64,000 nucleotides of DNA from an uncultured Pseudomonadota bacterium (lineage in GTDB: Bacteria > Pseudomonadota > Alphaproteobacteria > Rhizobiales > Hyphomicrobiaceae), in the NCBI GenBank assembly GCA_963786775.1, contig CAWBAM010000010.1:18806-82805 (forward strand). Reading direction: 5' to 3'. Both the position numbers and the translations under genes were made by a program. A model generated the notes under the pieces. The model worked only from the letters and a program-made list of their open reading frames with translations, ran no database searches and was not told the DNA's origin. Shown piece by piece: positions 14,633-19,768 of the stretch (position 1 is its first letter; the number at the start of each line of letters is the position of its first letter).

Positions 14633-15914
14633 ATGCGCACACAGGTGGGAATCATCGGTGCAGGGCCGGCGGGTCTGTTGCTCTCGCGTCTGCTGACGCG
14701 GCAGGGCATCGACAATGTCGTGCTGGAGCGTCGCAGCGCGGCGTACGTCCTGGGACGCGTCCGCGCCGGCGTGCTCGAGCACGGCACGGTCGAGCTCCTC
14801 GAGGAGGCCGATTGTGCCGAGCGCCTTCACCGCGAAGGTCTCGTTCATCGCGGTCTACAGATCAATTTCGACGGCAGCTCTTTGCGCATCGATCTCGCGG
14901 CTCTGACGGGCAGCGGGGTCGTCATCTACGGCCAGACTGAGATAACGCGCGATCTCATGAAGGCCCGCGAAGCCGATGGCAGCGTCACACTCTACGAAGC
15001 CGAGGCGATCGCGATCGAGGATGTGGATGGCGCCAGGCCGCGTATCCGCTATCGGCAAGGGGACCAAGACGGCGTTCTGGAATGTGATTTCGTCGCCGGT
15101 TGCGACGGGTTCCACGGCGTGAGCCGCACGGCGATCCCCACCACCGTGCTGACCACATACGAGCGATCCTATCCCTTCGGCTGGCTTGGTGTGCTGGCGG
15201 ATGTCAAGCCGTGCTCGGACGAACTCATCTATGCCAGCCACAGCGATGGGTTCGCACTCGCCAGCATGCGCACGCCGACGCGTAGCCGATACTACATCCA
15301 ATGCCCGCTCGATATTCGCCTCGACGACTGGCCGGATGACAGGTTCTGGGAAGAGCTGAAACGCAGGCTCGGTCCTGATGCCGCCGAGCGCGTTACGACG
15401 GGACCTGCCATCGAGAAAAGCATTGCACCACTACGCAGCTTCGTCGCCGAGCCGATGCAGTACGGGCGTCTGTTCCTGGCGGGTGACGCGGCCCACATCG
15501 TGCCGCCGACGGGCGCCAAGGGGCTCAACCTGGCGGCAGCCGACGTCGCGTGTGCTCGCACGCGCACTGATTGGATACTACAAGCAGAACCGCACTGATC
15601 TGCTCGAAGCGTATTCGGCGCAATGCCTCTCCCGCGTATGGAAGGCGGAGCGCTTCTCCTGGTGGATGACTTCGCTTTTGCACCGTTTCCCAGACGCCGA
15701 CGCATTCGCCCGGAAGTTGCAACGGGCGGAGTTCGAGCACCTAGCGACATCACGCGCGGCGCAGATGGCGCTGGCGGAGAACTACGTCGGGCTGTGGGCC
15801 GGGACGCGACAGTCCGTAGACATTTGCACAGGAGACGAAAAAACGCCCTCCGGTCCTGAGACCGGAGGGCGTCGAAGCCAATACGCGCTCTCAAGGAGAA
15901 GCTTACTAGGGTGA
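14633..15914 (+). CDS. pobA: 4-hydroxybenzoate 3-monooxygenase (frameshift ~15550; true end probably ~15800-15820)
   Basis: [63 protein letters not shown]. Confidence 0.93.
15838..15872 (-). terminator. Intrinsic terminator of precursor gene A1
   Basis: 13-bp perfect stem ACGCCCTCCGGTC/GACCGGAGGGCGT, 4-nt loop, U-tract on the minus strand. Confidence 0.8.
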
Positions 15915-16070
15915 TTTATGAAGTAGCCACAGATCGACTAGTCGCATCACCTCACCATCACCACCCGGAGGAGCGCCATATAAGGTGAGATATAGTAAGT
16001 AAGGTTGGGCGGTGACATCCGCCAGCGGCTTCTGCTTGGTCAGGACGGGCTTCTCGTACGAGCGCTTCAT
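15906..16070 (-). CDS. RiPP precursor peptide A1 (54 aa as sequenced)
   Basis: MKRSYEKPVLTKQKPLADVTA|QPYLLYLTLYGAPPGGDGE...KSP; YxxPxL RRE-binding motif, Thr at -2; AAGGAGG RBS. Confidence 0.85.
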   Translation of the reverse strand: MKRSYEKPVLTKQKPLADVTAQPYLLYLTLYGAPPGGDGEVMRLVDLWLLHKSP

Positions 16071-16431
16071 GATTGCCTCCTTCGTTGGTTCCGAAGCGAC
16101 AACCACAGATAGCTGAGTCCTTCGCAAGGTTGAAGATCAGCAGGCTAAACAACCACAAGTTGCTTGCCCTTATTTTGCGATAGCTCCGTGGCTGTATCTC
16201 GATCGCAACACCAATGATTGTCAGCGCAACGTTCAGGATGATCACGCACTCATGTGTCCGCTGCTCCAAGAAGCTCGGTAAAGATGTCGGACCTGCTTTC
16301 GACTTGGGGTCTCTCGGCGTGGCTACGCCAAACACCCTTCCTCAAGCCGAATTTCGATCCGCTCAGGTTCGTCGCTCGCTTTAGCGCAAAAAAAAATCGA
16401 TCAGCAGTTCGGTCTCTTTGGAAAAAGAATG

Positions 16432-16468
16432 AACAAATAACGCCCTCCTGCGGTCCGCAGGAGGGCGT
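16432..16468 (-). terminator. Intrinsic terminator of precursor gene A2
   Basis: 13-bp stem ACGCCCTCCTGCG/CGCAGGAGGGCGT followed by a T-rich tail on the minus strand; homologous to the A1 terminator. Confidence 0.75.
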
Positions 16469-16503
16469 CAGAAGAATAGGCGCTCGAAAGCAGGCCTTCG
16501 TGC

Positions 16504-16620
16504 TTATTCTGCGGTGTCACCGTCCCCAGGAGGAAAACCCGGCGTAATGAACACTTGTGCAGTGACGTCCACCAGCGGCTTCTGCTTGATCAGGACAGGC
16601 ATCTCGTACGAGCGCTTCAT
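16504..16620 (-). CDS. RiPP precursor peptide A2 (38 aa; not in ORF track)
   Basis: Manual translation MKRSYEMPVLIKQKPLVDVTA|QVFITPGFPPGDGDTAE*; AAGGAGG RBS; leader 18/21 identical to A1. Confidence 0.9.
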   Translation of the reverse strand: MKRSYEMPVLIKQKPLVDVTAQVFITPGFPPGDGDTAE

Positions 16621-17254: not shown

Positions 17255-17259
17255 ATCCC

Positions 17260-17712
17260 ATGACAACCCTCAAGAAGCTGCGCTTCAAAGCTGCCCTCTG
17301 GTTGTGGGCCCGGGCGCTCCCGGTCCTGGCATGGAAGCGCAGCCTTCCGTCACTCCTTGCGCTGACAAAGCCACGCGCGGCAGCCCCCTACCAAGGGTTG
17401 CCAGCGCACTACATCGTCCGGCGGGTGAAGAAGTCGACCCGCCGGCCTTGGGTTATGCGCGACCGGCCCTGTCTCCGAGAGGGCATTCTGGCGCTGCGCT
17501 TCTTAAGGCTCGCCGGCTTCGACCCCGCGCTTCACTTCGGGGTCGACCGCCAAAGCGTCAAGCAAGATGTGCTCTCGGCGCACTGCTGGATCGTGCTTGA
17601 TCAGGAGATCATCCTCAATCCGCCAACGCCGACCATGGTGGAAATCCTCATCCACGCGGGTGGCCGACTTGTCCCTCCCGCGCACGCCAACGTCACACTC
17701 TCTCAAGGATAG
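17260..17712 (+). CDS. Lasso B2-type transglutaminase-like leader peptidase
   Basis: PCLREGILALRFLRLAG...LHFGV...SAHCWIVLD, giving the catalytic Cys/His; directly follows the RRE gene. Confidence 0.88.
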   Translation: MTTLKKLRFKAALWLWARALPVLAWKRSLPSLLALTKPRAAAPYQGLPAHYIVRRVKKSTRRPWVMRDRPCLREGILALRFLRLAGFDPALHFGVDRQSVKQDVLSAHCWIVLDQEIILNPPTPTMVEILIHAGGRLVPPAHANVTLSQG

Positions 17713-17724
17713 ATCGGACCCGAC

Positions 17725-18740
17725 ATGGCCAATTGGTTCAATCTGAACGGTGCATTGCTGCGCATCGATGCCGAGGACCCGGCACTCGTGAAACCACTGC
17801 TGATCTACCTCGACGAGCTGAGCATCCAATCGTCCGAGCGAACGCCCGATTTTCGTCTGGTTCTTGAGAGGGGTCTGCCGCAGCCGCCACCTCCGGAAGC
17901 AAAGTTCCTCTATGGCCGGCGCTGGCCCGAAGGATTGGACTGTCAGTACAGCGCGCTAGGGACACGGCGGTTTCTCCTCGTCCCAGAGCAGCTTTCGCTC
18001 GAATATTCAACCCAGGACGGCATCGCCAAGATGCGCGCTGCACCCGGTCATGAGCGCTTTATCGGTGCCACTGCCGGCATTTACGCCATCTACGCCGCCC
18101 TTTTCGCAACCCGGCAGACGCTCATCCACGCTGCGGCTCTCCGCTTACCGCAAGAAGATGCAGCGTTCGTCCTGTTCGCGCCGAGTGGTGCCGGCAAGAC
18201 CACGACCTCGTTGGCATTGGCTCTGCAGGGCTTCGCTCTCCTCACCGACGATGCAACGGTGCTTTCGGAGCGCAACGCGGCGACCGCTGGAACCGAGGTC
18301 TGGGGTCTGCCACGACCCCCCAAAGTGCACCGCCGTACGGGGGAGCTGCTTCCTTCTATTGGCCGGCTGCTCGGCCCTGAATGGAATGCCGAGGACGAGC
18401 AGGGCGTGACTTTGAATGCCCTGAGATCCCAGATGGAGGTGCTGCCGGGGAGAGCTTATCCTCTGAGTAGGGCTCGTATTGCTCGGAGATCGGGTCACAA
18501 GGCGCCCATAGGCTCCGCCCAATGCGGAAGTCCGACCTCTTCGTTCATTTCGTCAGAGACAACCTGTCCTGCACCCAAAACGGCCTGATGGAGGATGATC
18601 TGGCCCGGTACAATGCCTTCGTGCGCGCCGTCGCCTCCACGCCAGCCTATGAGCTCAACGTCGGCAGCGACCTCTCCACTCTTGGCGAAGTCATCGCTGC
18701 CGCGCTGAGCCGTGCCGATCAGGCGATCTTGAGCGCCTGA
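17725..18740 (+). CDS. HPr-kinase-like P-loop peptide kinase (frameshift ~18470-18500)
   Basis: IHAAAL...APSGAGKTTTSLALALQGFALLTDD; C-terminus continues in ORF 18522..18740. Confidence 0.85.
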
Positions 18741-19768
18741 CGAAAGAGCTTGCGCCGCCAAGAGCCACGCCCCCGGGCTTGGCTCTGGCCACGGACGACC
18801 AGGCCGGGCGAGAGGAGCTGACCCGGCAGCCTCGAAAACGGCGAAGGCATCAGCTTCCGAGCAAGATTGATACAGCGCGGCTCTCCAAACGTTTTGCCCG
18901 CAAGCTCGAGTGCGCCCGCAACGGCAAGAGTCACGCCGCAACGCTCACAAATGCGCGCCAGCCGATCCTCGTCGATGGAACCGGCGACGCCCCTCGCAGC
19001 CTGCATCACGTCGACGAGGTGCTGCAACCGGTCGAGCTGATGGCCGATCGCGCCATGCGTCGCCGCGACAAACAGAAGTGCCGTTGCATCCGTGCAATCG
19101 CCGTCACCAGCGGCACAAACGTCCTCATAGCCGATCGACATGCTTCCGCGTAGCTTGGGCGAGTGCACGAGATTGCTGTGCACCTCGATCATGACGTCGT
19201 GCCTTGGTGGCAGCAGCCACTTCTGTTCGTGATAGTCCTTGCCTTTGCGATCCTCGAATTCGGAGAGGATGAAGCCCAGAGAGCGCATGATCTCAGCGGC
19301 TTCAAATCGATGCTCCACGGGAATCAGAATATCGGCATCCGTGAAAGTTCTGAGGGACGGCTCTGCATAAAGTCGTTGAGCGAACGCCGCGCCTTTGACG
19401 AGAGCGCCGATGATGCCGCTCGCTGAGAACGCGGCCATGACCCTGCGCGTATGGTAGAGCGTCTTGATTTGAAAGCCCGTCTGGTATGCGACCTGGAGCC
19501 TTGCCGTCTCCAGCTCTGAACGGGCCGCCTTCAGGGCTGTTGTCTCAGAGTCCCCAGCGCGCTTCGCTTCGCGTTCAATGAGGTCGCTCAACCCGCGAAC
19601 GAGAGAGGGCATTACGCCGTGATTATCGGCTGCCGCGACCAGCAGTTTAATCTGCTCTGGCTCGGGTAGCGGAATGTTCGGCGGGGCCCGCCTGACTGGA
19701 TCTGCGAAATGGACGAGAAGGCGCTCACCGTCACGGTTGAGCGGCAAATGAGGCGTCTTTCCCAACAT
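18719..19768 (-). CDS. Uncharacterised nucleotidyltransferase (NTP_transf_5-like)
   Basis: LVKGAAFAQRLYAEPSLRTFTDADILI, IEVH, HLVDV; family typical of paeninodin-type clusters. Confidence 0.82.
   Translation of the reverse strand: MLGKTPHLPLNRDGERLLVHFADPVRRAPPNIPLPEPEQIKLLVAAADNHGVMPSLVRGLSDLIEREAKRAGDSETTALKAARSELETARLQVAYQTGFQIKTLYHTRRVMAAFSASGIIGALVKGAAFAQRLYAEPSLRTFTDADILIPVEHRFEAAEIMRSLGFILSEFEDRKGKDYHEQKWLLPPRHDVMIEVHSNLVHSPKLRGSMSIGYEDVCAAGDGDCTDATALLFVAATHGAIGHQLDRLQHLVDVMQAARGVAGSIDEDRLARICERCGVTLAVAGALELAGKTFGEPRCINLARKLMPSPFSRLPGQLLSPGLVVRGQSQARGRGSWRRKLFRQALKIA

Follow-up and report, generated by a model that had tools for sequence, protein, structure and literature searches.

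What does a gene cluster make if it encodes the leader recognition and leader cleavage of a lasso peptide pathway and no macrolactam cyclase? This question is raised by a six-gene cassette in a 64-kb stretch of DNA (64,000 nucleotides, referred to here as the window) from a compost Hyphomicrobiaceae bacterium, whose genome assembly of 3.5 Mb is 87.6% complete. An original prediction, made from the letters of the window alone, held that the cassette directs the synthesis of a linear phosphorylated and possibly nucleotidylated peptide, which might belong to an undescribed class of RiPPs (peptides synthesized ribosomally and modified post-translationally). Our analysis indicates that the locus probably encodes a functional, cyclase-less RiPP pathway that depends on a B2-type leader peptidase and makes short linear modified peptides; the products are most likely short linear peptides decorated with phosphate. 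This reading draws on the gene content and intactness of the locus, the conservation of four enzymes and their catalytic residues, the absence of a cyclase, and peptide cores that are incompatible with ring closure.

Annotation of the open reading frames (ORFs) of the window with Pfam places the six genes between pobA and an agmatinase gene. Two small minus-strand ORFs encode the precursors. A1 (15906–16070) specifies a lasso-type leader (K-x-Y-x-x-P-x-L ... V-T-A) followed by a core of uncertain reading, and A2 (16504–16620, 38 aa) carries leader and core motifs common to the precursors of relatives. A plus-strand run of three genes encodes a PqqD-family RiPP recognition element (RRE) of the B1 type (16990–17254; PF05402 in its C-terminal part, E = 2.4e-11), a B2-type transglutaminase-like cysteine leader peptidase (17251–17712; PF13471, E = 1.1e-11), and an HprK-like peptide kinase (17725–18740) of about 336 aa if intact, whose three collinear pieces match single-frame orthologues of 336–337 aa. 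Convergent to the kinase gene lies a gene for an NTP_transf_5 (pol-beta-fold) nucleotidyltransferase-like protein (18719–19768, minus strand; PF14907, E = 5.9e-29); the two 3′ ends overlap by 22 nt, and the congeners described below share this arrangement. Every part that the original prediction had named, from the two precursors to the pobA and agmatinase flanks, was recovered at its position.

We compared 16 loci, comprising the window, five congeners, and ten distant loci (nine long contigs and one Rhodobacteraceae metagenome-assembled genome). The congeners are Hyphomicrobiaceae metagenome-assembled genomes and, like the Rhodobacteraceae genome, were retrieved by a locus search with very specific patterns. 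All five congeners carry intact orthologues, 56–75% identical, at the same site between pobA and the agmatinase gene. Across the ten distant loci, kinase identity falls to 30–48%, and the genes for PqqD, B2, kinase, and NTP_transf_5 are adjacent in every case. Two close pairs (L057/L061 and L062/L063) mean that the distant loci represent about eight independent lineages. A search of 5.8 billion proteins returned 80 clusters of kinases of about 330 aa, with 29–99% identity. A kinase profile run against 400 Alphaproteobacteria genomes gave weak P-loop matches only, which makes the family a rare one among those genomes.

The set of four enzymes occurs together without a cyclase in 16 of 16 loci. 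No lasso cyclase is encoded in the window, tblastn with AsnB found no match in any of the 16 loci, and Asn_synthase homologues are absent from the fetched flanks of the ten distant loci (up to 10 kb, less at contig ends). A PF00733 search of the organism's own genome as assembled returned three short PP-loop matches only, which correspond to MnmA, TilS, and NadE. The claim that the window lacks an asparagine-synthetase-like cyclase therefore holds and extends to the assembled genome, and the synteny survey called for at the time finds clusters of B2, kinase, and nucleotidyltransferase without a cyclase to be recurrent. Because all 16 loci hold this enzyme quartet and none of them an Asn_synthase homologue, the comparison of sequences indicates that the cassette is cyclase-less by design and not by decay.

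The precursors point in the same direction. Both window leaders read K-R-S-Y-E-x-P-V-L ... D-V-T-A and so combine the lasso Y-x-x-P-x-L motif with a Thr at position −2. This leader pattern occurs in at least 20 precursors of related loci, and the precursors beside related cassettes give the family consensus K-x-Y-x-x-P-x-[L/I/V] ... L-x-x-[I/V]-[T/V/S]-A; the leader of a congener precursor scored 21.9 bits against NF033528 (lasso_cyano), under the cut-off of 33. In A2, the leader MKRSYEMPVLIKQKPLVDVTA is followed by the predicted core QVFITPGFPPGDGDTAE, which has Gln at position 1, G-F-P at positions 7–9, and its earliest acidic residue at position 12. A lasso core has Gly, Ala, Ser, or Cys at position 1 and Asp or Glu at position 7, 8, or 9, and the A2 core has neither. 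Cores across the family span 6–24 residues and are highly variable in sequence; examples from relatives include VSSKGSLPPG, ASSKPA, TIASKPPI, AVTSGAPPP, QYYISPPYPDPDS, IGGISPPINPKVD, and DGNISGPVSAPGA. Since Asp and Glu are missing from positions 7–9 and some family cores are just 6–8 residues long, the cores of A2 and its relatives, judged by their sequences, cannot form a macrolactam of 7–9 residues. What the cores have in common is a motif, [I/V/A]-[S/T]-[S/P/G/K], in which a Ser or Thr follows Ile, Val, or Ala and precedes a small residue, Pro, or Lys. The conserved dipeptide falls at core positions 2–7, near the N-terminus.

A1 and A2 are duplicated expression units, each ending in a GC-rich stem-loop of 14–15 bp with a T tail. 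Their leader-coding segments of 67 nt share 90% identity, and the ribosome-binding site is kept; the cores diverge. The intrinsic terminator after A1 (15842–15873, minus strand) has a 14-bp stem with 10 GC pairs and then a run of T, and the one after A2 (16438–16470, minus strand) has a 15-bp stem with 10 GC pairs and a T-rich tail. In an alternative frame, the A1 core reads Y-Y-I-S-P-Y, resembling the QYYISPP cores of congeners. Contigs of near-identical strains from other metagenomes keep the A1 leader part and skip or replace 15927–16005, the core-coding part of A1. For this reason we regard the A1 core as hypervariable between strains; it may in addition be mis-assembled.

Two of the enzyme genes are interrupted in the assembly; the original prediction mentioned neither these breaks nor the uncertain A1 core. 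PqqD carries a single +1 frameshift (about 17063–17065). The kinase gene is broken twice within roughly 30 nt, at about 18468 and about 18494, so that its middle piece, G-L-V-L-L-G-D-R-V-T, lies in the third frame. The B2 and nucleotidyltransferase frames are open as assembled. We examined contigs that came from four public runs in three studies, covering compost, fertiliser, and invertebrate-gut metagenomes and one compost metatranscriptome. In the contigs of all four runs, one base is deleted at 17065 in PqqD and one at 18494 in the kinase gene, and contigs break at 18466–18469, the region of the first kinase indel. The same contigs fix indels in hutU (13829, 14287) and dctM (21051, 21599). 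When congener ORFs were aligned to the window by tblastn, frameshifts appeared in at least five unrelated genes, with breaks at 1344–2258, 5746–8032, about 15548 in pobA, about 21590 in dctM, and 52413–53736. The PqqD and kinase pieces are collinear and in a single frame in all five congeners. Because independent contigs drop the extra bases, unrelated genes show like errors, and the congeners are single-frame, the PqqD and kinase frameshifts are assembly errors and the organism's genes are intact. A reading of these genes as pseudogenes was accordingly rejected. The many 1-nt indels in this assembly mimic pseudogenes, and before a gene of this genome is called a pseudogene or its protein truncated, the same comparison should be made.

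Two further observations concern this region. The congener PqqD start lies 18 nt upstream of the window GTG at 16990, and a TAG at 16978 interrupts that extension; it may be another assembly error or reflect a truly shorter PqqD N-terminus. Contigs from the RNA library (run X15) span 16144–16606 and 18469–19393, and were not counted as evidence of expression because RNA libraries may hold DNA and contigs cannot show transcription.

The catalytic residues of B2, the kinase, and the nucleotidyltransferase are conserved throughout the family. Against NF033537 (lasso_biosyn_B2; cut-off 33), a congener orthologue of B2 reaches 54 bits, and in 11 family members neither the Cys of R-x-C-[L/M]-R-x-G nor the His of A-H-C-W varies. 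Among 44 kinase homologues, the P-loop S-G-x-G-K-T-T and the D-D pair are invariant (S154, G155, G157, K158, D175, and D176) and the upstream His (H135) nearly so. The match of the kinase to Pfam Hpr_kinase_C is weak (20 bits against a cut-off of 33). A structural model of a congener kinase orthologue (L013; predicted local distance difference test, pLDDT, 94) gave phosphoenolpyruvate (PEP) carboxykinases as its best Foldseek matches in the Protein Data Bank (PDB; E = 1e-9, TM 0.5). PEP carboxykinases and HprK/P have a common P-loop fold. All 14 homologues of the nucleotidyltransferase keep K-G...R-x-F-T-D-x-D and E-x-H without change; the nucleotidyltransferase model (pLDDT 91) gave weak PDB matches only (best E = 0.02), all of the pol-beta/NTase fold and including ANT(2″), LnuA, CCA-adding enzymes, and FKRP. 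Sequence searches of the PDB with the kinase, nucleotidyltransferase, PqqD, and B2 returned nothing significant. The cut-offs of the NCBIfam "HPr-rel-A system" were missed by both the kinase (TIGR04352, kinase A, 32.1 bits versus 200) and PqqD (TIGR04353, 19.7 versus 35). Some kinases have a faint precomputed match to "ScmC" (PF27840), which we take to be an uncharacterised protein of the SynChlorMet cassette.

These data suggest a pathway modeled on three characterised homologous systems: the Linear Polyphosphorylated Peptides (LPPs), the bsf cluster, and pseudomycoidin. The PqqD RRE would bind the Y-x-x-P-x-L leader of A1 or A2 and present the precursor to the enzymes. The HprK-like kinase would then phosphorylate, possibly repeatedly, the conserved core Ser or Thr, which in A2 is Thr5. 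The NTP_transf_5 protein may next elaborate the phosphate, most likely with a hexose by analogy to pseudomycoidin, although a nucleotide or a phospho-alcohol is possible. Finally, B2 would cut after V-T-A, with Thr at −2, to free a proline-rich, acidic, linear peptide of about 17 residues that contains no macrolactam. A linear phosphorylated peptide, as originally proposed, is likely on this analogy, given the missing cyclase and the inability of the cores to close a ring. The proposed nucleotidylation, however, was overstated: the sole experimental function for such nucleotidyltransferases is that of PsmN of pseudomycoidin, which adds one or two hexoses to phosphoserine (PMC8498205), and no activity was seen for the LPP homologue LppN (PMC13381572).

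Several points weigh against this pathway. So far, cyclase-less cassettes of the B2 type have yielded no observed product. Analogy supplies the phosphosite, the step order, and the nucleotidyltransferase chemistry, and LppN was inactive in the sole LPP study. The conserved Ser or Thr varies in position (2–7), whereas LPP and Bsf have it at 3. The A1 core is not reliably readable, and in our ORF and Pfam survey no gene for an ATP-binding cassette (ABC) or other peptide exporter adjoins the window cassette. At 87.6% completeness of the genome, moreover, the absence of a cyclase from this organism rests partly on its relatives.

The relatives also carry genes that the window lacks. In four of the five congeners, the stretch from the precursors to PqqD also holds genes for an ANL (AMP-binding) enzyme of some 495 aa and for a GNAT that is RimJ-like (Acetyltransf_3). 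Three of these congeners have, next, a gene for a PP-binding carrier protein of 80 aa; in the fourth, the contig stops at the GNAT gene. The contig of the fifth congener ends before the module site. Orthologues with 33–50% identity occur in five of the ten distant loci. The module is thus found in 9 of the 16 loci as one orthologous set with 33–68% identity (L012, L013, L014, L016, L046, L057, L060, L061, and L062), as exemplified by L013:4765–7066 in the congener G004. It is absent from the window and from the organism's own genome as assembled, in which the best ANL match is just 30% identical. The original prediction overlooked this module, which most relatives carry, at least four of the five congeners among them.

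Cassette and module seem to evolve together, and by analogy the module suggests acylation or lipidation of the peptide. This analogy is to the GNATs of goadvionins and selidamides, reportedly GNAT-dependent lipo-RiPPs in which, as in the congeners, a GNAT gene lies beside an acyl-activating enzyme and a carrier protein; they differ from the cassette in their RiPP scaffold enzymes, and the module is missing from the window. We therefore raise, tentatively and as less than an even prospect, a coherent, B2-dependent branch of linear phosphopeptides, spread over several Gram-negative lineages. In the fuller and probably ancestral form of its cassette (at least four of five congeners and five distant loci), the acyl-AMP ligase (ANL), the carrier protein, and the RimJ-like GNAT would attach an acyl chain, and the copy in the window would have been reduced to a minimal version that makes no lipid. 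If true, the branch would yield lipidated phospho(glyco)peptides, a product type undescribed for any RiPP. The seemingly co-evolving module points to a possible lipidated subclass.

Other explanations must be weighed against a pathway for linear phosphopeptides. The frameshifts in PqqD (one) and the kinase (two) as assembled, together with the absence from the window of the ANL-GNAT-carrier genes of at least four of five congeners, could mark the cassette as the decaying remnant of a phosphorylated lasso cluster that lost its cyclase. That idea is largely refuted and now barely credible: the independent short-read contigs drop the extra bases at 17065 and 18494, like errors occur in hutU, pobA, and dctM, and intact cyclase-less orthologues with invariant catalytic residues stand in 15 other loci. 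Equally hard to credit is a true lasso peptide whose ring would be formed by a cyclase from another part of the genome. The incomplete assembly leaves room for such a gene, and two congeners that are 99–100% complete (G001 and G003) each encode one full-length Asn_synthase protein. The protein of G001 is, however, a genuine asparagine synthase of the glutamine-hydrolysing type (TIGR01536, 381 bits versus a cut-off of 267) encoded beside glycosyltransferase and FkbM methyltransferase genes, in a polysaccharide context; three congeners of 93–95% completeness (G002, G004, and G008) have no Asn_synthase beyond short PP-loop matches; and the cores lack Asp or Glu at positions 7–9, some being only 6–8 residues long. 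A trans-acting cyclase was rejected on the PF00733 searches of the organism's own genome and the five congeners, with the hits of the organism's own genome and of G001 checked against Pfam and NCBIfam. Neither finding that the original prediction named as fatal to it, a lasso cyclase in the genome or homologous clusters that consistently include one, came to light; the homologous clusters are consistently cyclase-less.

Two further alternatives accept a phosphorylated precursor and differ in what follows. The peptide could be a carrier or scaffold on which a phosphorylated or phosphoglycosylated Ser or Thr primes or anchors a glycan or envelope polymer, or on which a small molecule is built and then released. 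LPP and paeninodin clusters lie in capsular polysaccharide loci, with function unknown (PMC13381572), two distant loci (L062 and L063) adjoin glycogen and sugar-nucleotide genes, and the window cassette has no peptide exporter. We nevertheless consider a carrier role unlikely, as the neighbors of the cassette in the window and congeners are catabolic genes (pobA, agmatinase, and a tripartite ATP-independent periplasmic (TRAP) transporter) and include no glycan genes, and a locus with several hypervariable cores looks more like a source of secreted bioactive peptides. Alternatively, phosphorylation could activate Ser or Thr for elimination to dehydroalanine or dehydrobutyrine, with the nucleotidyltransferase-like protein assisting or modifying further. 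Class III/IV lanthipeptide synthetases have established such kinase-then-lyase logic, and the single conserved Ser or Thr in a small-residue context would suit it. This outcome is quite improbable: the gene tables of the distant loci contain no lyase homologue, and the characterised homologues LppK, BsfK, PadeK, and PsmK yield stable phosphoesters.

The surroundings of the cassette vary between loci. In the window, pobA (FAD_binding_3; 14621–15794) forms the left flank and the arginase-family agmatinase gene (19915–20973, minus strand) the right. Accessory genes of the wider family include a B12-binding radical SAM gene, methyltransferase genes with a gene for a protein of about 325 aa, and, in L057 and L061, a MacB-type pump with a membrane fusion protein. 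The distant member at L058:8619–13472 has three precursors with xNIFVTG-type cores, and its radical SAM gene lies directly 3′ of the nucleotidyltransferase gene, beside an encapsulin-like (Linocin_M18) gene. In two Acetobacteraceae-like loci (L056:12764–14810 and L059:5803–6780), the conserved protein of about 325 aa, which has no Pfam match, directly follows PqqD; L056 also has a methyltransferase at that place, and no leader-like small ORF was found near either cassette.

How, then, does the cassette relate to known systems? Two hallmarks of a lasso cluster are present, namely an RRE (B1/PqqD) with a B2 peptidase that has its catalytic Cys and His, and a Y-x-x-P-x-L leader with Thr at −2. 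The locus nevertheless is not a lasso cluster, as it fails on the cyclase and on the core. Among phosphorylated or phosphoglycosylated lasso peptides, paeninodin and pseudomycoidin (Zhu et al. 2016; Zyubko et al. 2019, PMC6993621; review PMC8498205) share with it a kinase and an NTP_transf-type protein encoded beside B1 and B2. Their clusters include a cyclase and a D transporter, and their kinases target the C-terminal Ser of the lasso precursor, whereas in the cassette family a C-terminal Ser or Thr occurs in just some cores, the conserved Ser or Thr lying near the N-terminus. The bsf cluster of Bradymonas sediminis (bsfA, K, B1, B2, N, C, and D; Duan et al. 2023, PMC10368454) likewise has split B1 and B2, a nucleotidyltransferase, and an HprK-like kinase with the same His, P-loop Gly, Lys, and Ser, and Asp-Asp, a residue set shown to matter in BsfK (PMC10368454). 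BsfK phosphorylates core Ser3, is stimulated by the RRE, and accepts Thr3 in a mutant (PMC10368454). Unlike the cassette, bsf encodes a lasso cyclase, an ABC transporter, and a lasso-compatible core, and its leader has Ile at −2, where the cassette leaders have Thr (Val in one distant locus).

The published system that bears most directly on novelty is LPP, represented by lppA-K-B-S-D-N of Paenibacillus alginolyticus (Popov et al., Nat Commun 2026, PMC13381572). Before cleavage, LppK polyphosphorylates a linear peptide at core Ser3, and a precursor that lacks phosphate is cut poorly; LPPs are reported as restricted to Bacillota (PMC13381572). Like the window cassette, LPP has a discrete lasso-type RRE, a Y-x-x-P leader motif, an HprK-like kinase, an uncharacterised NTP transferase, and no macrolactam cyclase, and the predicted product here would, by analogy, also be linear and phosphorylated near the core N-terminus. 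The combination of RRE, HprK-like kinase, and NTP transferase without a cyclase is thus common to both, LppK and LppN being likened to the cassette enzymes by family and description and not by sequence. The proposal of an undescribed RiPP class was consequently overtaken in May 2026 by the publication of this linear, cyclase-less family (PMC13381572).

The two systems differ in processing, export, core, and host. LPP uses an SpI/SipW-like peptidase, LppS, where the cassette has the B2 transglutaminase-like cysteine protease; no other ORF of at least 80 aa with a family match lies between pobA and the agmatinase gene, and the gene tables of nine distant loci list no signal-peptidase family, B2 always being there instead. 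The MsbA-like LPP exporter, LppD, has no counterpart beside the window cassette. The core of LppA has 45 residues, against 6–24 here, and the remaining LPP leader consensus (VLxHQxIxFETxxS) is not present in the cassette leaders. The ANL-GNAT-carrier module of many cassette members is a further difference, and the hosts are Alphaproteobacteria and other Gram-negative lineages, in contrast to the Bacillota of LPP.

In the literature we searched, we found no description of B2-dependent cyclase-less clusters. The cassette shows that lasso leader recognition and B2 cleavage have repeatedly been uncoupled from ring formation and joined to phosphate chemistry well outside Bacillota. The very short cores with one conserved Ser or Thr also offer testable substrates for working out the function of NTP_transf_5. 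Overall, the cassette is most likely a proteobacterial, differently processed cousin of LPP and not a new class; we therefore place it by LPP, with which it shares its logic but not an SpI-like peptidase, the LPP exporter, or a host within Bacillota.

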